Sequence record: PZ445534.1 | Origin: a phage | Strand: one strand, 5' to 3' | DNA: 64,000 nucleotides | Shown: in pieces, positions 29,598-52,444 of the stretch | Position numbering within the stretch: position 1 is the stretch's first letter | How the letters are laid out: every line of letters begins with the position of its first letter | Program-made: the position numbers and the translations under genes | The notes under the pieces: generated by a model | What the model saw: only the letters and a program-made list of their open reading frames with translations | Told to the model about the DNA's origin: nothing | The model's database searches: none

Positions 29598-30131
29598 TCA
29601 ACTTAGTTTTGCAAACTCTCCGTGGAGTTTAATAGCAGCTTCACAGTAAGCTTTATGGGCTTCTTCAGGTGTGTCATGGTGACCTAAAAACATCTTCTTA
29701 CCTTTATAACTTATCTGTGCGACCCACTTACCAGACTTCTTCTTAAGACTTACACCCTTGTACCCAGATTTATTGGTGACCGGTTTACCTTTATTCCAAG
29801 CACTTTGAAAATCATCTGCTTCCCTTAAGTTTACAATCCTGTTGTCAAGTGAGTCTCCGTTGATATGGTCAATGATACCTTTTGGCATCTTGCCATACAC
29901 GTAAAGCCATGCGAGTCTGTGTGCTTTATGTGCTTTCTTGTCAAAATAGATACTAACCTGTTTATGACCACTTGAATCAGTCTGGATATTACCTGCCACC
30001 TTTCCTGCATAATTACTGTTAAAAACACTAACAGCTCTTGATTTACCTTCTCTACGAAGCCAAGTAAAGACCCCTGTTTCGGGGTCATAGTGCAGCAGCT
30101 CCTTTAAACGTTTTTGTAAAATTAAATCCAT
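29598..30131 (-). CDS. free-standing HNH homing endonuclease with AP2-type DNA-binding domain
   Basis: 177 aa; HNH motif IDHINGDSLDNRIVNLR; AP2-like YKGVS...GKWVAQI...GHHDTPEEAHKAY; immediately downstream of split polymerase. Confidence 0.8.
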   Translation of the reverse strand: MDLILQKRLKELLHYDPETGVFTWLRREGKSRAVSVFNSNYAGKVAGNIQTDSSGHKQVSIYFDKKAHKAHRLAWLYVYGKMPKGIIDHINGDSLDNRIVNLREADDFQSAWNKGKPVTNKSGYKGVSLKKKSGKWVAQISYKGKKMFLGHHDTPEEAHKAYCEAAIKLHGEFAKLS

Positions 30132-30134
30132 TAA

Positions 30135-30689
30135 TCAATGTACCTCATACCAGCTCTTACCAACCTTTGCTGTACCAGTTACAAGTGTTTCTTTCCTCAA
30201 ACCTAAGTTTTTTGAAGCTTGTCCATACATCCAGTCAGCAATTGCTTTCATATCATGTGTCATACCCTCTGGACATTCCCAACTATTTTCATCGTGATAT
30301 GCCAGAAGTAACCTTGCTCCGATAGCTGGTTTTCGAGCATTCAGTTTTGTCAGGCCATCTTCACAGGCTTTTCTTGCTGCTAGGTTGATGGCCTCATTCT
30401 GAATCTGTGCTTCCGAACTCATCAGGAGGTAGTTCAGTAGTTTATGTGGAGATTTGCACCATATCCATGCTCCAGCGACCCTGATATAACCACCTTTAGC
30501 AATTGAAGAATTCTTCCCAAAAACCTCTTCCAGAGCCTTTTTAGACGCCTTAAAATCGGCTTCTAAGCTATCAAGTAACTTCTTAATCTTTGGCAGACGC
30601 ATATAGTAAGTTTGTTTAGTCAATGCACCTTCTTCCGTAGATGATGCCTTGATAGTTTTTGCAAACTTCTCGTCTCCAGCCCCGAACAA
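30135..30689 (-). CDS. DNA polymerase (family A) 3' exon / C-terminal part; ORF-track start is an in-frame TTG, true exon start is the intron 3' splice site
   Basis: Contains motif-B continuation LFGAGDEK (T7 gp5 has YGAGDEK) and motif C LLLAYHDE. Confidence 0.75.
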   Translation of the reverse strand: MFGAGDEKFAKTIKASSTEEGALTKQTYYMRLPKIKKLLDSLEADFKASKKALEEVFGKNSSIAKGGYIRVAGAWIWCKSPHKLLNYLLMSSEAQIQNEAINLAARKACEDGLTKLNARKPAIGARLLLAYHDENSWECPEGMTHDMKAIADWMYGQASKNLGLRKETLVTGTAKVGKSWYEVH

Positions 30690-30962
30690 TACATCTGGTC
30701 AATACACTCGCAAGGTGTACCAGTTCTCTTATGAACTTCTCCGCATTTCTACGGAGTGTCGGACTATATCACGTAGCAGTGGTGCTACCGTTGCACTTGG
30801 GATGGTCATTAGCTTACCACCCTACTCTACTCAGTTCATACGTTAAGTATGCTTTTCGATAGTCTCTGAACGTTCCTCTTAAGAGGCTTCGCTGCTGATT
30901 ACCATATCTTTACAGACTTAGGCTTCCAGCAATTCACAACGTTTTACATGCGCCACTGACGC
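30687..30962 (-). ncRNA. putative ORF-less group I self-splicing intron in DNA polymerase gene (boundaries approximate, +/-10 nt)
   Basis: Separates polymerase motif A/B from motif C; minus strand carries group I P7-like elements AGACTATCG and GATATAGTCCGAC; in-frame TAA just inside 5' end. Confidence 0.6.
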
Positions 30963-33131
30963 ATAAATGCCATTTTTGGCTTTCTTACGACCTTTTGTAA
31001 TCTCGTGGAGAAGTTCCTCATCCTGTGTCTCCCTACAACGAACAATGTCTTCTTCCTTGTTCAGACCAAAGTAAATACTATTCAGTGTATGTGCATCAGT
31101 ACCTGTGTAGACTTCATAGAGGTCATTCTCAGCATCATAACGCAGATACTTGTCAGTTTCTGGGTTAAGATACTTGTCAAGATGCTTGCAGTAGTATCTA
31201 CCATCATCTTGCTTAGTGAACTCAACTGACTCTTTACCCTCAGTTACCGCTTTAGTGAAGTCTTCATCACCCATAAAGTTACAAAGAAGAACTAGCTGGG
31301 CTGAGTTTTGGTCTACAGAGACAACGTTAGTACCTTCTTCACAAATCCACACCTCCCTCATAGGTGCTCCATAGACAGCAGCACCAGACGGTACGTTTAC
31401 AATACCATATTGTGTCATACGTCCAGTTGAAGTACCAAACACCATTGCACCAGCACTAAGGCGACCATCAGGACGAATCTGGTTCAACCAACCTTTTTCA
31501 TCATCTTTTGAGTTCTCAATAGTTCTACGTCGGTGCATCAAAGTATAGTACTTAGCAATCTTCTGTCCAAGCTCACCTTCAATCGTATCATAAGATGATT
31601 CAGTAAGTTTTGGTGAAGTACGGATTAAGCAAGGCTCAAGCAAATCTGTGTATTTCTTCACAGACCAGTTATGCTCAATGTACTGGACACCTTCATGCTC
31701 AACATAGCTCAAACCACACCGCTCAACCATTTCCTGCCACTTAGGATGCTTTGTAATCATCTTTTTATTGTCTTTGAAACGACAAACTTTGATAGGGCGA
31801 CCATCTGAGTCTTTCTTGTAATTCCAGTCATCTGGAATCCAACCAACTGATTTCAAGTAGTCTTTAACAACTGCTACCTGAGTCATACGAGAAACTTCAA
31901 ACTCAATTGGTGTATATGGTGCATCAATCAAACCTGTGTAGCGACTTGACTCAAGTTCAAAGTGGTTAACAACGTGGCTGTTATAGTACTTCACAGTTTT
32001 GACTGTTTTTACTGGCTTCCAGTCTTTGCATTTCTTACCAATCTTTGCGTTCAACTCATTGCAAATTGCACGAGCATCCTTCATTGCTACAAAACCTTCC
32101 TTGTACTCTTCACCAGTTACAGAGTTGGTTGGTGTATAGCAATTCCTTTTTTCAATGTTAAAAATCTTTGTAGTTGGCTTACCAAATGGTTTGATTTCGT
32201 ATGTCTGCATCTCACCATTACGTACCTGCTGACGATACTTTGTCTTAGGGTACTTGGTAATTCTTTTCAGTCCATCTGCATGACCAAATGTTTCAACATA
32301 CTCATTCCAAGCTTTTGCAAACTCTTCTCCAGTGACTTTACCTTTGGTCTTAATAGTTGGAGGAAGATGTGGTTCAACCTCTGAAGCAAGCTCATTAGTC
32401 AACTTGTCAAGTTCCTTTACATGGAACTCCATAAGCTCTTTATCAGCTTTCCAACCATTAATAGCTTGTTGACTCATCCAGAAAGATGTTTCTTTAGCTC
32501 GCATGTAGGTTTCATAAGTGTCTATGCCACACTTCTTAAGCTTGAGATACTCATTATCAAGTGCCCGTTTAGTTTTGGCGTTAATACGGATATCTTCTAC
32601 AACACGAGTGAAGATTTCTGCATTCCACACACCCCAATGTTCAATCTCTGGTTTACGAACACCAACACGAGCACCCCATGCAGCCAAGCCATGAGCACCT
32701 TTATAACCCTTTGGAGTTGGTCTATCCATCCACTGAACACGAGACTGGATAAGAGAATCCTGAAAGAAATTACTCCACGGCTTACACTTTGGATTATCAA
32801 AGTTCCATAAATCCGGTGCAATGTGATTGAAAACCCACCAGTCATAACCTAGACCATTATGAATGCAAAGACGTTTTGCCTTTAACGCAAACTCAACACC
32901 TTCACGTAAGCCACCCTTAATGTACTTGGTATACTTGTGACCGAGGATAGGCTCATCTGTAAAGACCCATACAGGCGGCTCTTTATCGTCAGATTTATAG
33001 TCTGCGAAAGCCATTACGTGCACTTTAGTGAACTCAAGGAGTAAACCATCAGTTTCTGTATCACCAACTAAATGTAAGTTTTTAAAATCTACGTTTTCCA
33101 TTTTTACTCCCTCTAAAATCATTAACCTCAT
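30918..33131 (-). CDS. DNA polymerase (family A) 5' exon: 3'-5' exonuclease domain and N-terminal polymerase domain; last ~14 codons of ORF are intron read-through
   Basis: Exo I motif DTETDGL; motif A VDQNSAQLVLL (cf. DYSQIELR); motif B start RKKAKNGIY. Confidence 0.8.
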   Translation of the reverse strand: MRLMILEGVKMENVDFKNLHLVGDTETDGLLLEFTKVHVMAFADYKSDDKEPPVWVFTDEPILGHKYTKYIKGGLREGVEFALKAKRLCIHNGLGYDWWVFNHIAPDLWNFDNPKCKPWSNFFQDSLIQSRVQWMDRPTPKGYKGAHGLAAWGARVGVRKPEIEHWGVWNAEIFTRVVEDIRINAKTKRALDNEYLKLKKCGIDTYETYMRAKETSFWMSQQAINGWKADKELMEFHVKELDKLTNELASEVEPHLPPTIKTKGKVTGEEFAKAWNEYVETFGHADGLKRITKYPKTKYRQQVRNGEMQTYEIKPFGKPTTKIFNIEKRNCYTPTNSVTGEEYKEGFVAMKDARAICNELNAKIGKKCKDWKPVKTVKTVKYYNSHVVNHFELESSRYTGLIDAPYTPIEFEVSRMTQVAVVKDYLKSVGWIPDDWNYKKDSDGRPIKVCRFKDNKKMITKHPKWQEMVERCGLSYVEHEGVQYIEHNWSVKKYTDLLEPCLIRTSPKLTESSYDTIEGELGQKIAKYYTLMHRRRTIENSKDDEKGWLNQIRPDGRLSAGAMVFGTSTGRMTQYGIVNVPSGAAVYGAPMREVWICEEGTNVVSVDQNSAQLVLLCNFMGDEDFTKAVTEGKESVEFTKQDDGRYYCKHLDKYLNPETDKYLRYDAENDLYEVYTGTDAHTLNSIYFGLNKEEDIVRCRETQDEELLHEITKGRKKAKNGIYASVAHVKRCELLEA

Positions 33132-38049: not shown

Positions 38050-38907
38050 ATGTCTAAAGTTGTTAAAATGAAAGCTCCGGTAGAGAAGTACAACGGTACT
38101 GAACGTCAAACTCTGCGTTACCTGCTGAAAGATGTCTGGTTTTATTACCTGAACACTTCACCACGTCCGGGAAAAGGTAAGTCTATTGATAAGAAATTCC
38201 CAGGAAAAGATTGTAACTACAGCGTATCAATTCTGGCAGAAGACGGTAACAAACTGTTTAAAGAGTTTACTAAGTCTAAGAAAAATCCAGAAGGCTGGGA
38301 TAAAGTTACTACTGAAGCAGTTGATGCAGATGACTTCGAAGAGAAGTTTGGTTGTAAACCACCTTTTGAAGCAGACACTTACTACATCTTGAAAGTAAGT
38401 CGTGCAGCAGCTTATAAAGATGGTGCTGTATGGACAGCTAAACAGTCATTCCCTGTAATGCTGATTGAAGAAGTAAATGGTAAGCGTGTAGCTGTTAAGC
38501 AGCCGATGAAGAAAATCAAAGCTCAAGCATCTGATAAACATGAAGATGACAAGAACTATGATGTAATTCATCCAGATATTGCAGTTGGCAACGGTTCTTT
38601 TGGTAGTGTGATTCTTTCTACTCACTTCTACACTTTTGAGAACAATGTTCTGACAAAACCTATTCAGGAACAGTTTATCATTGACACTCTTGTACCTTAC
38701 ACTGGTGGTAACGGTGCTAATGGTGAGCCTGAACTGGATGAAGATGAACTGGCTATGCTTGGTCTTGATGGTGTTGAAGATAACGGTGAAATCACTGAAG
38801 AAGACGCAACAGACCATAAACCTTCGAATGCTTCTGATGATGGTGATGATGAAGATTTACCAGACCCAGATGACGAAGAAGATGAAGACTTCGATACAGA
38901 AGACTAA
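38050..38907 (+). CDS. single-stranded DNA-binding protein (T7 gp2.5-like) with acidic C-terminal tail
   Basis: 285 aa; C-terminus DDGDDEDLPDPDDEEDEDFDTED; position between primase-helicase and exonuclease. Confidence 0.55.
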   Translation: MSKVVKMKAPVEKYNGTERQTLRYLLKDVWFYYLNTSPRPGKGKSIDKKFPGKDCNYSVSILAEDGNKLFKEFTKSKKNPEGWDKVTTEAVDADDFEEKFGCKPPFEADTYYILKVSRAAAYKDGAVWTAKQSFPVMLIEEVNGKRVAVKQPMKKIKAQASDKHEDDKNYDVIHPDIAVGNGSFGSVILSTHFYTFENNVLTKPIQEQFIIDTLVPYTGGNGANGEPELDEDELAMLGLDGVEDNGEITEEDATDHKPSNASDDGDDEDLPDPDDEEDEDFDTED

Positions 38908-38926
38908 TCTCTAAAAGTTACTTTAA

Positions 38927-38953
38927 AGCCCTGTACTTAGTATGGGGCTTTTT
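38927..38953 (+). terminator. rho-independent terminator
   Basis: AGCCC...GGGGCT hairpin + TTTTT. Confidence 0.4.
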
Positions 38954-38969
38954 CATATGGAGAGCCATA

Positions 38970-40016
38970 ATGGAGAAGTACACATTAACAAAACTTCCCG
39001 ATTCAGTTACACATGTTTTTATTGACTCTGACAGTATTGCCTATAAAGGTGCTTGTGTAGTTGAGAAAGCAAAGTATAAATATGTCAATAAACTCACAGC
39101 AGAAGAATCTGAACCATTTGATAATGCGAAAGATGCTGCAAGATGGTTAGCAGACCAGAGAATCCTTGTGGAAGAACTTGGCCTGACATTTGATGAAGAT
39201 GAATGGGAAAGACAGACTTGGAAAGAAGCTAAGAGTGAAAAAGAAGCTATCATGGCTACTCAACAGGTTCTTCAGGAATGGCTTAAGGTTGTTGGTAAAG
39301 AGAGAATTTGGGTAGGTTATCTAACAGAGAAAGGTGTGCATAAGCATAAAGACATTAAAGGTCTTGAGCACCAATATCAAGGTAACCGTAAAGATGCTGT
39401 CACACCAACACACTTAGTTGCTTGTCGTGAGTATCTTCTGTCAAGACCAGAGTTCAAACTAATTCTTGATGGATTTGAAGCCGATTCTATCGTTATTGCT
39501 AAAGCTGAAAAGATGGGTAAAAAGGCTGCCTTGATGAGTATTGATAAAGACCTTCGTCAAGCTGAAGGGACTTACTGCATTGATATGACCTATGAAAAGT
39601 CACCTTTGATTTTCATTGCTGACAACAACGTAGGTGAAATTTGGGATTGCCCAATAAAATCGACACCAAAAGCTAAGAAGACAGTTGGGGTAGGTTTTAA
39701 ATTTCTTTGTTACCAAGCTGTGGCTGGTGATAATGCTGATAATTATTTTGGTTTAAAGGGCGTTGGTAAGGCTACTGTAATGAAAGCACTTGAAGGTAAA
39801 ACCACCTACAAAGAGTGTCTTGATGCAATTTATGAGCTTTATGCTAAGAAAGAGTCATACACTTATGTCTCGTGGGATGGTCAAACAATTACCAGAACAC
39901 CTTTAGAGTTAATGCAGCAACACTTTTTCTTAGCTTATCAGGAAAGAAACAAGAAAGACGATTTTACTTTTGATAAGTATGGGTGGACACCAAATGTTAA
40001 CTCAACAAACTCTTAA
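38970..40016 (+). CDS. 5'-3' exonuclease / flap endonuclease (T7 gp6-like)
   Basis: 348 aa; H3TH-like motif AGDNADNYFGLKGVGKATVMKAL; N-terminal FIDSDSIAYK. Confidence 0.65.
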   Translation: MEKYTLTKLPDSVTHVFIDSDSIAYKGACVVEKAKYKYVNKLTAEESEPFDNAKDAARWLADQRILVEELGLTFDEDEWERQTWKEAKSEKEAIMATQQVLQEWLKVVGKERIWVGYLTEKGVHKHKDIKGLEHQYQGNRKDAVTPTHLVACREYLLSRPEFKLILDGFEADSIVIAKAEKMGKKAALMSIDKDLRQAEGTYCIDMTYEKSPLIFIADNNVGEIWDCPIKSTPKAKKTVGVGFKFLCYQAVAGDNADNYFGLKGVGKATVMKALEGKTTYKECLDAIYELYAKKESYTYVSWDGQTITRTPLELMQQHFFLAYQERNKKDDFTFDKYGWTPNVNSTNS

Positions 40017-40485
40017 AGAGTACCTACATTATGACCCCGAAACAGGGGTCTTTACTTGGATTAAGAAATCTGCTAGACACACAAAAATTGGCTCTGTTGC
40101 AGGTACAAACTTAAGAGGGTATACCAGAATTTATTTGTTTGGTAAGGGCTATTATGCACATACCCTAGCCGTTCTGTATATGGATGGATACCTACCTGAG
40201 TGTGTTGACCATAAAAATCATGTAACACTAGACAATCGCTGGGTAAATCTTAGGGCATGTACGTTATCAGAGAACCAATGTAATAGGTTGCTCAATAAGA
40301 ACAATAAATCAGGTGTTAAAGGTGTGTACTACAAAAAACAGTATGGTAAGTGGTCTACACAGATAACTTTTAAGAAGAGGGTTTACTTCTTCGGCAACTA
40401 TGACACTATTGATGAAGCAGCAGAGGTTGTAAATAGGGAACGTCAACGTTTACACAAAGAGTTTGCTAATAAAGGTGATGAATGA
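39970..40485 (+). CDS. free-standing HNH homing endonuclease with AP2 domain (paralog of 29598..30131)
   Basis: 171 aa; HNH motif VDHKNHVTLDNRWVNLR; AP2-like GVKGVYYKKQYGKWSTQI; shares N-terminal LHYDPETGVFTW with the other HNH. Confidence 0.75.
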   Translation: MISMGGHQMLTQQTLKEYLHYDPETGVFTWIKKSARHTKIGSVAGTNLRGYTRIYLFGKGYYAHTLAVLYMDGYLPECVDHKNHVTLDNRWVNLRACTLSENQCNRLLNKNNKSGVKGVYYKKQYGKWSTQITFKKRVYFFGNYDTIDEAAEVVNRERQRLHKEFANKGDE

Positions 40486-40982
40486 GAAAAATAAAAGGTT
40501 TTGGCAATTGCCCTGAATATGGACATTGGGTTTCACTATGTGGTGAAGTTGACCCAGCAAAGCACTTTGGTTTTGTCTACCTAGTGTACTGCAAAAAGAC
40601 TGGACAGTACTATTTGGGTAAAAAACAGCTTAACAGTGTGACCAAAAGAAAAGTTGCTGGGAAGACTCGGAAGAAGATAGTCACTAAGGAAAGTGATTGG
40701 ATGACTTATGAGACTTCTTCTGAGTATATTAAAAAAGATATTGAAAGCTTTGGAAAAGAATTTTTTGACTTTTACATTATTCAGACCTACTACACAAAAG
40801 GTGGCCTAGTCTATGGTGAAGCAAACCTTCAACATAAATTCGATGTAATGACAAAAAGGATTGACTCGAAGCTCAGACTCTTCTACAATGCCAATATTGC
40901 AGCAATTAAGTTTATTACTAAAGAAACTTATGAAGATGCTGAAAAAAGAATCCATAAGGTAATGAAAGCAAACTGTGCTTGA
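40482..40982 (+). CDS. putative GIY-YIG family endonuclease
   Basis: 166 aa; GIY-YIG-like N-terminus GFVYLVYCKKTGQYYLGKK. Confidence 0.5.
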   Translation: MRKIKGFGNCPEYGHWVSLCGEVDPAKHFGFVYLVYCKKTGQYYLGKKQLNSVTKRKVAGKTRKKIVTKESDWMTYETSSEYIKKDIESFGKEFFDFYIIQTYYTKGGLVYGEANLQHKFDVMTKRIDSKLRLFYNANIAAIKFITKETYEDAEKRIHKVMKANCA

Positions 40983-40988
40983 TAACTA

Positions 40989-41234
40989 TTGAGAGAGAAT
41001 AAAATGTTTAACAAAAGTAAAGCTGTGAGTCATGTAGCAAAGGTTGACAGCAAGATTGAAGAACTTGAGCGCATTCTTGCAAATGCCAGAGAGTCAATAA
41101 TTAAAGAAGTTGAAGCTGTTGAATCTCAAATGCAACACCTAATGCTTAAACGTCAAGAGTTACGTGAGCATCTGGAATATATTGAAACACGAGAGCTAAA
41201 GGTTAACAGATTTTTAAGGAGTCCAAATGTTTAA
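40989..41234 (+). CDS. hypothetical coiled-coil protein
   Basis: 81 aa ORF. Confidence 0.3.
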   Translation: MRENKMFNKSKAVSHVAKVDSKIEELERILANARESIIKEVEAVESQMQHLMLKRQELREHLEYIETRELKVNRFLRSPNV

Positions 41235-41982
41235 CTCAAGAGAAGCAGTAAAAAACTGGAATCTTCGTTGTGGAAACACTCAAAAGCAACCTTACAGTGA
41301 TGAGTATTGGGAATCTTTAAAATCCCAGTCTCTGTGTATGCTTGAAGAAGCAAAAGAGCTTGTAAAAGCAATTGAAGAGAAAGACCCCATTGAGACACTG
41401 GATGCTCAGGCAGATTTGCAATATGTTCTTGATGGTCTGATTTATCTGTCACAACATGACCATAACGGTGCTATGAAAGCTGTTTGCCATAATAATGACC
41501 TGAAATACACAGATAACTATGAAGAAGCTTTAAAACGTCTTGCAGATATTGAAAAGCGTACTGGTCAAGAGTGTATTATCAGAATGTCAGTAGTTGATGG
41601 TAAAGAGTGGTATGCAATTGTTCGTGCAGCAGATGGGAAGATTATGAAGCAATCAAATCTCCCTAAAGTACAGCTTGGTGAATACATTGTAGAACTTGAA
41701 AGCCAAGAACTTTTTGTGGTAGTATCTGAGACATGCGTTATCTGCAAAGGTATTGTATGTAGCTTAAAGGATTTGGGTGTAGATGGTTTTGTAGAAGTTA
41801 ATCCAATTACCTCTAAAGCAGATAAAGATTTCTGTAAAGAGAATGGACTATGGATTGCAGATATTGTCTACTATGATGGTGAGCAGTTCCATGTAACCTC
41901 ATACCCGAAACTGAATTATGATGCTAATAACCTGAAGTGCTGGTTAAAAGGGGTTGGTTATAATGGATTCACAGAACATTAA
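41227..41982 (+). CDS. hypothetical protein, possible MazG-like nucleotide pyrophosphohydrolase N-domain
   Basis: 251 aa; N-terminal EEAKELVKAIEEKD...DLQYVLDGLIYL loosely MazG-like. Confidence 0.3.
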   Translation: MFNSREAVKNWNLRCGNTQKQPYSDEYWESLKSQSLCMLEEAKELVKAIEEKDPIETLDAQADLQYVLDGLIYLSQHDHNGAMKAVCHNNDLKYTDNYEEALKRLADIEKRTGQECIIRMSVVDGKEWYAIVRAADGKIMKQSNLPKVQLGEYIVELESQELFVVVSETCVICKGIVCSLKDLGVDGFVEVNPITSKADKDFCKENGLWIADIVYYDGEQFHVTSYPKLNYDANNLKCWLKGVGYNGFTEH

Positions 41983-42286
41983 TAAAGAGGGTGTGGCTCA
42001 GAAGAGCCACTTCTCAAACTACAATATTTCTATGACGGTGTTTATGAATGACCCGTTACTAGAAAAATATGGTGAGACTCCAGATACACTTCTGGACAAT
42101 GAACAAGTTTTAAAAGCAGTCCTGTACAAATATGGGATTGATATTGAGAAAGAGTATTCTTTTGAAATCTGCCAACACAGAAATACTTTTGGGAAAGTTG
42201 TAATGGCTCCACTCTTCATGGGTGTAGAAAGGACTGACTATGGTTGGTTATATCTAAAAAGAAACTTGGAGAAATACCGTGTCTAA
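41954..42286 (+). CDS. hypothetical protein
   Basis: 110 aa ORF. Confidence 0.3.
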   Translation: MVIMDSQNINKEGVAQKSHFSNYNISMTVFMNDPLLEKYGETPDTLLDNEQVLKAVLYKYGIDIEKEYSFEICQHRNTFGKVVMAPLFMGVERTDYGWLYLKRNLEKYRV

Positions 42287-42614
42287 AACAAAAAAGCTAT
42301 CTTATGATGACATTATCTCAGGTGCTAAGTTAGGTGTTGACAGTATCGGACAAGATATCAAGCACGGAGACACAGTCATGTACTGTGATGACCGAAGAGG
42401 AAGAAGTGCAATCTTGTTTGGAAGGATTGTTTGCAAGATGCGAGGTAATTACGTTGTTGCAGACATGGATGTGAACGTTACACAAAAACTTGAAACAATT
42501 ATGGATGATAATACACCATCATGGTTCCTAAATTGTATGCACACCTCGTCAGTCACAAAAGTAAGTGATAAGTTTTACGATATGTGGCAGAATGAGCAAA
42601 TTTTCAAGATTTAA
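42279..42614 (+). CDS. hypothetical protein
   Basis: 111 aa ORF. Confidence 0.3.
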   Translation: MSKTKKLSYDDIISGAKLGVDSIGQDIKHGDTVMYCDDRRGRSAILFGRIVCKMRGNYVVADMDVNVTQKLETIMDDNTPSWFLNCMHTSSVTKVSDKFYDMWQNEQIFKI

Positions 42615-46767: not shown

Positions 46768-47964
46768 ATGAACAAAGTACAGATTATTAAAAAGAATGGC
46801 TCACTTGAAGAACCTGATATCAAAAAAGTTTTAGCAGCAGTCACAAAGTCAGCTAACAGAGTTGGTTATAAAGAGCTTCCACCAGATGTTACTCAAGCTC
46901 TTGAGTCAGCATTTATGAGGATTCTGGTAAAGTCCACTAAGCAGAATAATTTGCTAATTTCGGTAAATGATATTCACAGTATTGTTGAGGGTGCTTTGGC
47001 AGAAGTCAATCACGAGATTTATGAGTCTTACTCAACATATAGAAATTACCGTAAAGAGGTTGCTCAAAATTGGGATGAACTCTACCAGAAGACCAAAGAT
47101 ACACTCTTCTTAGGCGACCGAGAAAACGCTAATTTTGACAGCAGTTTAATTTCTACAAAAGGCTCAATTATTCGTGGTTACCTGACTAAAGAAATCTTTA
47201 AACAGTACCATTTAACACCAGAGGAACTTGAAGCCATTGAAAAAGGATTTATCTATATCCATGATTTAAGAGACCTAATTTTTGGTGGTATCAACTGTTG
47301 CCTGTTTGACATTGGTAAAGTCCTGAAAGGTGGCTTTGAAATGTCTGGCATTGAATATTGTGAACCGAAGTCTGTGCTGTCAGCCTTACAGGTTATTGGT
47401 GATGTAGTTCTTTCAGCAACTGCACAGCAATTTGGTGGCTTTACTTTAGCAGAGATTGATAAGGTACTTGTACCGTATGCTAAGAAGTCTCTACGTTACC
47501 ATGCTGAAAAAGCAACAGCTTATGGTATTCCTAAAGAACATTACCACAACTATGTCATGGAGCAGCTACAGATTGAATTAACTCAAGGTTTTCAGTCTCT
47601 TGAAATGAAGCTCAATACTGTGCCTTGTAGCCGTGGTGATTTTGCATTCACAACTTTGACATTCGGGTTACTTGACTCAGATATGTCTAATGAAGATAAC
47701 CGACTGCAATACATGATTGCGAGCACTCTCCTAGATGTTCGTATGAATGGACAAGGTAAGAGCAAGAAACCTGTTGTATTCCCTAAACTGGTTTATATTT
47801 ATGACCAGAAGAGACACAATGAGAATATCTGTCAAGGCCACCTGTACAGTAAAGCTATTGAGTGTTGCTCTAAAGCTATGTATCCAGATTTCTTAAGTGT
47901 ATCTGGACATGGTGCTGTAGCAGAGGCTTTTGAGCGTTCTGGCAAGGTAATTTCCCCGATGGGT
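46768..47964 (+). CDS. nrdD: anaerobic ribonucleoside-triphosphate reductase, exon 1
   Basis: N-terminal ATP-cone; exon ends ...ISPMG before intron that begins with in-frame TAA. Confidence 0.85.
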
Positions 47965-48280
47965 TAACAAGCTCTATAGCTCATCTAAAACGTGCCTAAA
48001 CAGGGAAACTCTACAGATGTAGACAATCCTGTGCTAAATGATGTACGATGTAAGAAACTATACAACATAGGAGTCTTACATGCCAAATAACTTCGAATAT
48101 GAGTTTGAATACATCTAAATGCCGAACGACTAACCGTGATGAATGTAGCGGTGTAGGGTCAAGCGACTCGAAATGGTACGCTACTTAGAAATAAGTAGAA
48201 GATATAGTCTGGACTTACTGGCGACAGTAAGCAGCTTGAATAAAGCGGGGTAAGCTTAGCGAACTTACTTGAACAACAAG
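47965..48280 (+). ncRNA. group I self-splicing intron (ORF-less, td/nrdD-like) in nrdD
   Basis: 316 nt; strongly resembles T4 td intron core as recalled (CCTAAACAGGGAAACTCTACAGATGTAGACAATCCTGTGCTAAATG; GTAGGGTCAAGCGACTCGAAATGG; AGATATAGTCTGGAC); exon 1 ends in T, intron ends in G, spliced frame preserved. Confidence 0.8.
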
Positions 48281-49228
48281 TGTAGAGCATTTTTATCACC
48301 ATACCATAACGAACATGGTGAAGAGTTTTATGTAGGTCGTGCTAACATTGGTGCTGTATCTTTGAACTTACCAATGATTTATCAGTACACCAAAGAGAAT
48401 GGCTTAGATTTCTGGAAAGAGCTTGATAAGTACCTAGAAATGATTCGCAGCTTCCACAAGAAACGTTACGAAATGATTGCTAATATGCCAGCAAGTTCTA
48501 ACCCTCTTGCATTCACACAGGGTGGTCTGTACAAAGGGAATAAGAAACCTACTGACAAGGTTGGCTGGGATATCGTGAAGTCCTTCACAGCTTCTTTTGG
48601 GGTTACTGCGCTTGATGAGCTATCTGTTCTTGCTGAAGGTAAACGACTCCATGAAGTTGGAAGCTGTAGTTTTGCATATGATGTTCTGGCATACATTAAC
48701 ATGAAAACTGAAGAGTTTAAGAACGAAGATGGCTTCTTGTATGCGGTATATGGCACTCCAGCAGAATCACTTTGTGGAACTCAGTTAAAACAGTTCAGAG
48801 ATATGTTTGGCGTTATTAAAGGTGTCTCTGACAAGGAATACTTTACAAACAGTTTCCATATGAATGTTGCAGCAGACATCTCACCATTTGAGAAGCAGGA
48901 CTTAGAAGAGCCATTCTTCCATATCTGTAGAGGTGGTAGAATCCAGTATGTAAGGGTAGCTAACCCAGAAAACTTAACAGCACTTAAAAGTTGTATTACA
49001 AGAGGGATGTTGAAAGGTTTCTATCAGGGGCTTAACTTTGACTTAGCAATCTGTGAACATTGTGGTAACAGACCAAAGGCTGATGTTGAAGAATGTGAGG
49101 TTTGCCATTCACATGATATCTCTGTGATTAACAGGGTGTGCGGGTACTTGTCATTCACAAAAATTAAAGGTCAGTCTCGAATGAATGACGCTAAGATGGC
49201 AGAAATTAAGGATAGGGTTTCTATGTAA
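48281..49228 (+). CDS. nrdD: anaerobic ribonucleoside-triphosphate reductase, exon 2 (glycyl radical domain)
   Basis: Begins CRAFLS...; C-terminal zinc site CEHCG...CEVCH and glycyl-radical motif RVCGYL. Confidence 0.85.
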   Translation, partial: CRAFLSPYHNEHGEEFYVGRANIGAVSLNLPMIYQYTKENGLDFWKELDKYLEMIRSFHKKRYEMIANMPASSNPLAFTQGGLYKGNKKPTDKVGWDIVKSFTASFGVTALDELSVLAEGKRLHEVGSCSFAYDVLAYINMKTEEFKNEDGFLYAVYGTPAESLCGTQLKQFRDMFGVIKGVSDKEYFTNSFHMNVAADISPFEKQDLEEPFFHICRGGRIQYVRVANPENLTALKSCITRGMLKGFYQGLNFDLAICEHCGNRPKADVEECEVCHSHDISVINRVCGYLSFTKIKGQSRMNDAKMAEIKDRVSM

Positions 49229-51650: not shown

Positions 51651-51772
51651 GGAGATGATATGTATCTGTCAAACCTAAAACGTTCTGCTGCAATGTCAGT
51701 GTTAAGACTTAGCTTTGAGGAACGTCAAGAGTTCATTGACTCCACCAATACGACCCCTCAAACTCCAATCAC

Positions 51773-52045
51773 ATGATTCTCTGGAATCGTGAAAGTACTC
51801 GTGAAAGAGTACTATTCCGTTATTACCCACACTACACTATAGATAACCTGTATGAATGTTTTGTTGTGAAGAACACCATTGCAGTGCTCAATAAGCTTTG
51901 TAGATACACAGGTAGTCAATCCTTCACATTAGGCCACCACAAACCTGTTACAAAAGGTGGTGAACATCACTGTGCAAACTGGTTTATTCAGACTAAAGCT
52001 GATAACCAGAAGCAAGGAGATAACCTTTTAAGTGCCCTAAGATGA
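51773..52045 (+). CDS. small HNH endonuclease
   Basis: 90 aa; HNH-like LGHHKPVTKGGEHHCANWFIQTKADNQKQGDN. Confidence 0.45.
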   Translation: MILWNRESTRERVLFRYYPHYTIDNLYECFVVKNTIAVLNKLCRYTGSQSFTLGHHKPVTKGGEHHCANWFIQTKADNQKQGDNLLSALR

Positions 52046-52165
52046 CCTATGAAGAGCAAGAGAGATATATCAAAAATAATATGCCAGATGTGCTTGACAA
52101 CAACTATACAGATTTGGCAATATCTCTCCTGTTGAAGTTCGAGACAGTTTATAGGGCAACTTATA

Positions 52166-52444
52166 ATGGCTAAAGAAAAGTGGGAGATTTTACCATTAGT
52201 CAGTGAAGGAGGTAATGGTTGTGAAATGTACATGATACGTGGTCATGTTCCAGAGCCAATTGCACTTGAGATGGTAAACAACTTTACAGATGGTTCTTAC
52301 AAAGACTTAGGCGAACCAACTGTCAAGCAACAATGGGTTAAACCTGTACCAGACAGCACAGGTAACTGTAGTGTACTTTATCACGTTGTAGACCCTGCAA
52401 AATGCAAATCTGCAATGGCAGTAACAAACGTAACTTTTGATTGA
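52166..52444 (+). CDS. hypothetical protein
   Basis: 92 aa ORF. Confidence 0.3.
   Translation: MAKEKWEILPLVSEGGNGCEMYMIRGHVPEPIALEMVNNFTDGSYKDLGEPTVKQQWVKPVPDSTGNCSVLYHVVDPAKCKSAMAVTNVTFD

Follow-up and report, generated by a model that had tools for sequence, protein, structure and literature searches.

A putative homing HNH cassette and a fixed GIY-YIG core gene downstream of the 5'-3' exonuclease gene of a Felixounavirus genome

Directly downstream of the 5'-3' exonuclease gene in sequence record PZ445534.1, of which a stretch of 64,000 nucleotides (the window) was analysed, lie two nuclease genes, one of the HNH and one of the GIY-YIG type, and it is the nature of these two neighbours, and of an HNH paralogue elsewhere in the window, that is considered here. 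Judged by its sequence, the window is a Felixounavirus (Felix O1-like) genome: the locus at 38900-42300 is 97.3% identical to Escherichia phage VpaE1, and nearly all of the 259 phage records that matched it belong to Felixounavirus and sister genera of the subfamily Ounavirinae. The gene order is that of Felix O1, i.e., primase/helicase, a 285-residue acidic-tailed protein, 5'-3' exonuclease, HNH, GIY-YIG, a small open reading frame (ORF), MazG and nrdA, and the features at the centre of the locus are the following.

38970-40016, plus strand: gene for a 5'-3' exonuclease (FEN/RNase H-like), matching phrog_107 (E 7e-66) and, weakly, Pfam 5_3_exonuc
39970-40485, plus strand: HNH ORF in the extent called by the program, with a TTG start at 39970 within the exonuclease gene
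39994-40485, plus strand: gene for a free-standing HNH_3 + AP2 homing endonuclease, allele A, with a conserved ATG start (Pfam HNH_3, phrog_99)
40482-40982, plus strand: gene for a SegE-type GIY-YIG nuclease of 166 residues, catalytic domain only (Pfam SegE_GIY-YIG)

A preliminary description of this DNA had placed the two nuclease ORFs back to back after the exonuclease gene, with the HNH ORF overlapping the 3' end of the latter, and both points were borne out. The HNH and GIY-YIG genes overlap in an ATGA stop/start, and the HNH ORF overlaps the exonuclease gene by 47 nucleotides when read from the TTG at 39970. The start shared by all alleles in all genera is the ATG at 39994, which has been chosen by several GenBank annotators and has a Shine-Dalgarno-like GGGTGGA (39981-39987) 6 nucleotides upstream; with this ATG as the HNH start, the overlap is therefore 23 nucleotides. 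The final ~9 codons of the exonuclease gene (TPNVNSTNS*) come from the HNH cassette, and relatives that have no HNH finish in ...WEPCMNED* or WEPVMNED*. The HNH protein matched Pfam HNH_3 (E 1.2e-11, 44.4 bits vs a cut-off of 24.8) and PHROG 99, 'HNH endonuclease' (E 7e-69), as well as phrog_33760, both of them HNH-AP2 families, and it keeps the residues D72, H73, N81, N85 and N97 (in the numbering of the 163-residue form), which are invariant in the alignment of paralogues. Omega within allele A is 0.015-0.054, indicative of purifying selection, and against the copy in the Mooglevirus Sf14 it is 0.044, with a synonymous divergence (dS) of 1.4 as compared to 1.6-1.7 in the flanks. By these measures, the HNH gene after the exonuclease is old and appears to be functional. 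NCBIfam gave no usable match for any of the four ORFs searched, and a search of genome contigs with the HNH returned six distant bacterial or metagenome-assembled relatives only.

Comparison with related phages, one of the checks proposed at the outset, found the HNH to be present or absent at one site, to occur there in three or more alleles, and to lie at the centre of a conversion tract. A 241-nucleotide probe spanning the empty exonuclease/GIY-YIG (exo|GIY) junction of the HNH-less phage warpig matched 261 records, and the state of the junction was scored in an even sample of 60. The probe gave one uninterrupted match in 39 of these and was split by an insert in the other 21 (~65% empty, ~35% filled), in agreement with allele counts, by which ~92 of the ~261 junctions are filled and the remainder precisely empty. 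Allele A was found in 21 records, comprising 18 of Felixounavirus (88-99.5% identity) and three of Mooglevirus (80%), the Felix O1-type allele in 43, and a third type (wV8, garuso, Moogle) in ~28. The allele families are ~57% identical to one another in protein and every one starts MLTQQTLKE.LHYDPETGVFTW; at least three of them occupy exactly one junction, and the empty sites are precise to the base. Genomes with an empty junction have an overlap of 11 nucleotides between the exonuclease stop codon and the GIY-YIG start. This arrangement is also seen in the outgroups SUSP1 and Erwinia phage phiEa104, so that the empty junction is the ancestral state.

Some records in the databases call for separate comment. 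In EC6 (NC_027369) the GIY-YIG gene is annotated in two pieces (87 + 91 residues), as is the Felix O1-type HNH in FG1m (PP068123), and these may be frameshifted copies or sequencing errors. Felix O1-like sequence with 87-96% identity to the locus is also present in the records MG065664 and MG065668 (Campylobacter phages A132 and A126) and GU169904 (Staphylococcus phage SA1), which suggests contamination or chimeric assemblies.

From the comparison with warpig, and with carriers of allele A, two further features could be placed.

39965-39993, plus strand: left junction of the HNH cassette, with 10 donor-type single-nucleotide polymorphisms and the Shine-Dalgarno-like GGGTGGA
39965-40637, no strand assigned: minimal gene-conversion (co-conversion) tract with the HNH; the maximal tract is 39951-41041, and 40677-40841 is patchy

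Between the window and warpig there are no mismatches over 39213-39964 (0.75 kb), then 10 in 39965-39989, then a 490-bp insert, then 30 mismatches in 40490-40841 that thin with distance, and again none over 40842-42515 (1.67 kb). Against the allele-A carriers SP-010, GLBO_sp7 and NBEco004 there are 0 mismatches in the 29 positions of the junction and 2-3 in the 488 of the HNH, as opposed to a divergence of 4-5% to the left of the tract and 3-4% to its right. Read site by site, 21 consecutive informative sites are of warpig type, the last at 39950; ~33 are of donor type from 39965 to 40637; a few sites up to 40841 are then mixed, and the sites are of warpig type again from 41042. The left crossover is thus confined to a 15-bp interval 30-45 bp from the HNH start, and the exchanged flanks amount to 29 bp on the left of the HNH and at least 156 bp on the right, into the GIY-YIG gene. 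Based on this pattern, the HNH with a short flank was exchanged between lineages: the alignments show that the phage lineage exchanged the patch from 39965 to ~40637 with a lineage like that of SP-010 and GLBO_sp7. The patch, of 0.67-1.1 kb, lies tightly around the HNH, and its identity to distant HNH carriers is 99.4%.

These same observations bear on whether the HNH moves by homing or is instead a polymorphic accessory gene that travels by ordinary homologous recombination, its nuclease being inactive or serving defence, exclusion or help with packaging. Felixounaviruses are generally mosaic, with a backbone divergence that shifts in blocks, and the direction of the exchange is not readable from the sequences, both of which would suit such an accessory gene, as does the point stressed by Barth et al. 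2023 that homing by a nuclease gene cannot be demonstrated from its sequence alone (PMC10448857). What makes this alternative unlikely is the placement of the left crossover so close to the HNH start in a tract that hugs the gene, the occupation of exactly one site by three unrelated alleles with base-precise empty counterparts, and the strong purifying selection on the HNH gene even though it is missing from 65% of relatives. The HNH is mobile on all the sequence criteria available.

How a homing cassette would operate at this junction can be sketched. The ~490-bp cassette brings its own ribosome-binding site and start codon and replaces the last few exonuclease codons, and its ATGA overlap keeps the gene that follows translationally coupled. 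During mixed infection with an HNH-less relative, the HNH enzyme would nick or cut that relative's uninterrupted exo|GIY junction, the target site in the carrier's own genome having been destroyed by the insertion, and recombinational repair would then copy the cassette and a little flanking sequence into the recipient. The predicted target is the uninterrupted junction of warpig or JK55, near ...TGGGAGCCGTGTATGAATGAAGATTAAAGG..., and such a prediction makes the enzyme directly testable.

The resemblance to known free-standing phage HNH endonucleases is close. Apart from T4 MobE, the relevant precedent is the HNH-AP2 family of Magnani et al. 2004 (as cited in PMC10448857), and Felix O1 ORF106 is a member of this family. 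In common with that family, the HNH described here has an N-terminal HNH_3 and a putative C-terminal AP2 region, an intergenic position among genes of replication and nucleotide metabolism, presence/absence polymorphism, and co-conversion of its flanks. Unlike in the family's other systems, there are at least three allele families (~57% identical) at a single insertion site, with their first 22 codons in common, and the 3' end of the upstream gene is rewritten. As active endonucleases, moreover, the Felixounavirus members are putative. A nuclease gene placed precisely at the edge of a patch recombined between related phages was likewise reported by Barth et al. 2023 (PMC10448857), the differences being that their phages were ICP1-like and the genes T5orf172 and IPA-HNH, whereas the phages here are Felixounaviruses.

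The second nuclease gene is of a different character. It had been put down as another selfish endonuclease, and this did not hold, as it is a conserved core gene found in every related genome at the same position and with no DNA-binding domain. The match to Pfam SegE_GIY-YIG (E 1.1e-26) places the catalytic domain at residues 22-139 of 166, and it is followed by one helix (151-165) with no further Pfam domain matched; a relative, P0010 (270 residues), carries a NUMOD-like C-terminal tail that the window's protein lacks. In an alignment of 50 members, Y44, G46, K48, W73, Y76, S79, E113 and N136 are invariant and Y33 nearly so, and the window protein keeps them all. The fold is I-TevI-like, with the I-TevI catalytic domain as its best structural match; sequence searches against solved structures, with the single sequence or with a 50-sequence profile, gave no match. 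A word-based search for homologues gave 10 proteins, and an exhaustive profile search used in its place gave 2200 cluster representatives of ~120 to 390 residues.

The distribution of the GIY-YIG gene is also that of a core gene. It stands at the same position in all of the ~261 records that have the locus and in all four genera of Ounavirinae, and translated searches found it in Kolesnikvirus phages and in the Noahvirus roseophage DSS3_VP1 (Naomviridae), in each case immediately behind the 5'-3' exonuclease gene. Between genera its omega is 0.03-0.05, alongside 0.04 for the exonuclease and 0.10-0.15 for MazG. Among three close genera, the amino-acid identity is 85-88% for the GIY-YIG and 88-90% for the exonuclease; against the Kolesnikvirus phiEa104 it is 62% for the GIY-YIG, 54% for the exonuclease, 45% for the upstream protein and 38% for MazG; and against DSS3_VP1 it is 43% for the GIY-YIG and 24% for the exonuclease. 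By its distribution and constraint, the GIY-YIG gene is not mobile in this lineage and counts among the fixed core genes of the replication module. It has the catalytic domain of the Seg homing endonucleases and is without two of their defining features, the C-terminal targeting domain and the sporadic distribution.

It could be argued that the GIY-YIG is an endonuclease of homing, or of 'marker exclusion', which became fixed long ago and has been kept for cutting more distant competitor phages that have no copy. Its membership of the SegE family, the I-TevI catalytic domain as best structural match, the intact catalytic residues and the existence of longer relatives with NUMOD-like tails all agree with such an origin. 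The protein has no recognisable DNA-targeting domain, however, its gene still follows that of the exonuclease in another phage family, where its identity is 43%, and it is conserved as well as or better than its neighbours, which is unusual for a purely selfish gene. We regard continued service in exclusion as improbable, albeit the least so of the rival explanations weighed here. The role that would better suit its conservation is that of a housekeeping nuclease acting with the exonuclease, whose gene it always directly follows and usually overlaps; possible substrates are intermediates of replication or recombination, or else host DNA, which is what T4 endonuclease II degrades.

T4 endonuclease II is a housekeeping enzyme, employed in host DNA breakdown, and is not selfish. 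The GIY-YIG protein is like this enzyme (DenA; PDB 2WSH) in being small and stand-alone, in having no separate targeting domain, and in being encoded among genes of nucleotide metabolism and replication. It differs from T4 SegE and the other Seg enzymes (PF19835), and from the I-TevI catalytic domain (PDB 1LN0), in having no C-terminal DNA-binding region and in being universal and syntenic where those genes are sporadic. Nothing decisive was found in the literature on the role of this gene or on host-DNA degradation by Felix O1. The family bears the label 'NAD synthetase' (PHROG 447) in hundreds of GenBank records, those of T4-like cyanophages among them, a label which no search made here supports and which looks like a propagated annotation error. 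As far as tested, then, the protein fits neither 'homing endonuclease' nor 'NAD synthetase' and is better described as a tail-less SegE-type nuclease of the replication module, present in Ounavirinae and in a Naomviridae phage, with more distant counterparts in many T4-like cyanophages. It may be a homing nuclease domain that was taken over for phage housekeeping.

The window holds a second gene of the HNH type, and a search for any further HNH paralogue within the window found none besides these two.

29598-30131, minus strand: paralogous HNH_3 + AP2 gene immediately downstream of DNA polymerase exon 2 (Pfam HNH_3 9e-15, AP2 1.2e-12)

The preliminary description had taken the HNH after the exonuclease for a recent duplicate of this gene, citing an identical N-terminal segment, LHYDPETGVFTW, which is indeed present in both. 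The claim of a recent duplication fell nonetheless, as protein alignment gives 41% identity and the shared peptide is a motif of the whole family. A degenerate search for Y[DE]P[ED][TK]G[VL].. in viral contigs found at least 600 stretches, at least 507 of them encoding relatives, and YDPETGVF being found family-wide, the peptide is no sign of recent duplication. Outside a 30-nucleotide block treated below, nucleotide identity of the two genes in 10-codon windows is ~27-70%, mostly 45-60%. By this divergence, the two HNH genes are old paralogues and did not arise by recent duplication.

With this, the proposal that both ORFs are currently selfish tandem homing endonucleases, a homing endonuclease gene (HEG) island in which the HNH arose by recent duplication of the polymerase-adjacent one, becomes very unlikely. 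It had in its favour that both ORFs have nuclease domains typical of HEGs, that the GenBank records of pinkbiff, warpig and Sf14 name both genes 'homing endonuclease', and that the two HNH genes share an identical 30-nucleotide stretch; set against these are the age of the paralogues, the family-wide occurrence of the peptide, and a GIY-YIG gene that is universal, syntenic, under purifying selection as strong as that on the exonuclease, and without a DNA-binding tail.

The explanation that we favour, with a probability of about 0.72, is that the HNH is a mobile free-standing homing endonuclease cassette, the GIY-YIG a fixed tail-less core gene of the SegE family, and the HNHs old paralogues. 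Several observations weigh against it, some concerning the HNH and others the GIY-YIG. Profile searches for the domains named in the preliminary description recovered HNH_3 and SegE_GIY-YIG, while AP2 in the HNH after the exonuclease scored 20.9 bits, below the Pfam cut-off of 33.3, though the region aligns throughout with the AP2 of the paralogue (48.4 bits). The exchange is shown by the alignments to be centred on the HNH, and its gain by this lineage and its loss by the warpig lineage fit equally well; both the cleavage by the HNH and its target site are predictions. The Mooglevirus copies of allele A are about as far diverged as the sequence around them (80% nucleotide identity), so that recent transfer between genera is not indicated. 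Recent intergenus transfer of allele A was indeed considered and rejected, the Sf14 copy being as diverged as its flanks, and it follows from this parallel divergence that the HNH polymorphism is old. As to the GIY-YIG, the SegE_GIY-YIG family takes its name from T4 SegE, which is a true homing enzyme; a sizeable part of the family consists of short forms; and short homologues occur in several hundred records of T4-like cyanophages, there not beside an exonuclease. The proposed housekeeping role is drawn solely from conservation, synteny and architecture.

The finding is real but largely ordinary, because the GIY-YIG neighbour is a core gene and the HNH is not a recent duplicate, and near-identical HNH and GIY-YIG genes are already annotated as homing endonucleases in public records. 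Its use is mostly as a worked example, in which a homing-type patch in a natural Felixounavirus genome can be followed base by base, and as a correction to annotation. Felix O1-like phages are used in Salmonella and E. coli biocontrol, and mobile nuclease genes matter for the stability of their genomes and for phylogenies. Two leads deserve to be followed, the tail-less core GIY-YIG nuclease and a lineage-specific hairpin in the HNH genes.

The hairpin lies within a 30-nucleotide stretch that is identical in the two paralogues, for which 0 matches are expected by chance.

40030-40059, plus strand: 30-nucleotide block TATGACCCCGAAACAGGGGTCTTTACTTGG with hairpin in the HNH gene after the exonuclease, identical in both paralogues
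30060-30089, minus strand: second copy of the block and hairpin, in the polymerase-locus HNH gene, by nucleotide identity

It is a perfect 6-bp hairpin, GACCCC-GAAACA-GGGGTC, at 40033-40050, and is built of codons seldom used in this genome. Its stem needs the codons GAC, CCC, GGG and GTC, and in this genome CCC makes up 3.5% of proline codons, GGG 7.6% of glycine codons and GTC 12.6% of valine codons, such that the chance of the combination, given the peptide, is ~1.3e-4. In a survey whose sample was chosen by protein similarity, the stem was perfect in 10 of 10 Ounavirinae loci and in 0 of 67 loci of other phages, the latter having at most four Watson-Crick pairs each, two of them forced by the amino acids. 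The stem is kept with other loops, some of them altering the amino acids, such as GACAAA in Felix O1 ORF95 (peptide DPDKG), GATACA in Sf13 and GAAATA in SUSP1, and the Felix O1 paralogue ORF128 (peptide EPETGL) is without it. The alleles at the exonuclease locus diverge abruptly right after the block.

Whether the hairpin GACCCC-N6-GGGGTC in the first ~20 codons of these HNH-AP2 genes is a functional nucleic-acid element, as opposed to a by-product of the YDPxxGV peptide, is a matter on which we lean, tentatively, towards doubt. Were it functional, it could act as an RNA hairpin or weak terminator by which the expression of a toxic nuclease is kept low, or serve as a recombination junction for swapping N- and C-terminal HNH modules, the divergence of the alleles starting right after it. 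The block itself may have been kept by selection on the hairpin or by repeated short gene conversion. The whole 141-nucleotide region folds not unusually well (z -1.6). Two candidate roles were set aside: a general feature of the HNH-AP2 family, given the survey outside Ounavirinae, and a canonical intrinsic terminator, for which the case is weak, since a simple scan flags the hairpin but the U-tract is poor and is unconserved in other paralogues.

The polymerase locus is highly polymorphic, with 74 of 260 relatives covering at least 80% of its 2.2 kb. The alleles of its HNH gene are mosaic: the window copy and Felix O1 ORF95 (L037 15287-15790) share their last ~20 codons (TPEEAHKAYCEAAIKLHGEFAKLS) at 100% nucleotide identity, while their N-terminal halves are unrelated, and across alleles at this locus these last ~20 codons are common at 93-100% nucleotide identity. 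In the window's polymerase-locus protein, serine replaces the second conserved asparagine of the HNH motif (..FQSAWNK) seen in other paralogues, and the enzyme may be impaired.

Three further features lie outside the exonuclease locus and bear on the mobile elements of the window.

30739-31021, minus strand: ORF-less group I intron in the DNA polymerase gene (Rfam RF00028, 61.7 bits vs a gathering score of 50)
47850-48231, plus strand: ORF-less group I intron in nrdD (Rfam RF00028, 54.6 bits vs a gathering score of 50)
51660-52170, plus strand: homologue of Felix O1 ORF125 broken into three reading frames (tblastn segments in frames +3, +2 and +1)

Two introns had been noted from the letters alone, and both stand, each over the Rfam gathering threshold and splitting, respectively, the DNA polymerase gene and nrdD. 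The polymerase exons are the ORFs 30918-33131 and 30135-30689 (minus strand), both of which match DNA_pol_A, and the nrdD-flanking ORFs 46768-47967 and 48269-49228 match the single nrdD of Felix O1, right after the glutaredoxin gene, by position and not by sequence comparison. The nrdD of T4 is likewise intron-bearing. In Felix O1, the polymerase gene and nrdD are uninterrupted and neither intron is present (PMC3185647). The polymerase intron, with a free-standing HNH gene just downstream of exon 2, recalls the 'collaborative homing' of an intron with a separate endonuclease.

A third small HNH proposed at 51773-52045 was not recovered: neither this ORF nor its full-length Felix O1 homologue gave a Pfam or NCBIfam HNH match, and the PHROG match was weak (E 1e-4). 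The ORF is the middle piece of the ORF125 homologue, broken by two frameshifts; ORF125 itself has 171 residues, belongs to phrog_3500 and contains an HH...N...N-like stretch. The split could mark a pseudogene or a recoding site, or be due to an error of sequencing. The load of selfish elements, which had been called unusually high, is normal for the genus, as six HNH genes are reported for Felix O1 itself (PMC3185647) and 2-3 HEGs per genome for the genus (PMC8300805).

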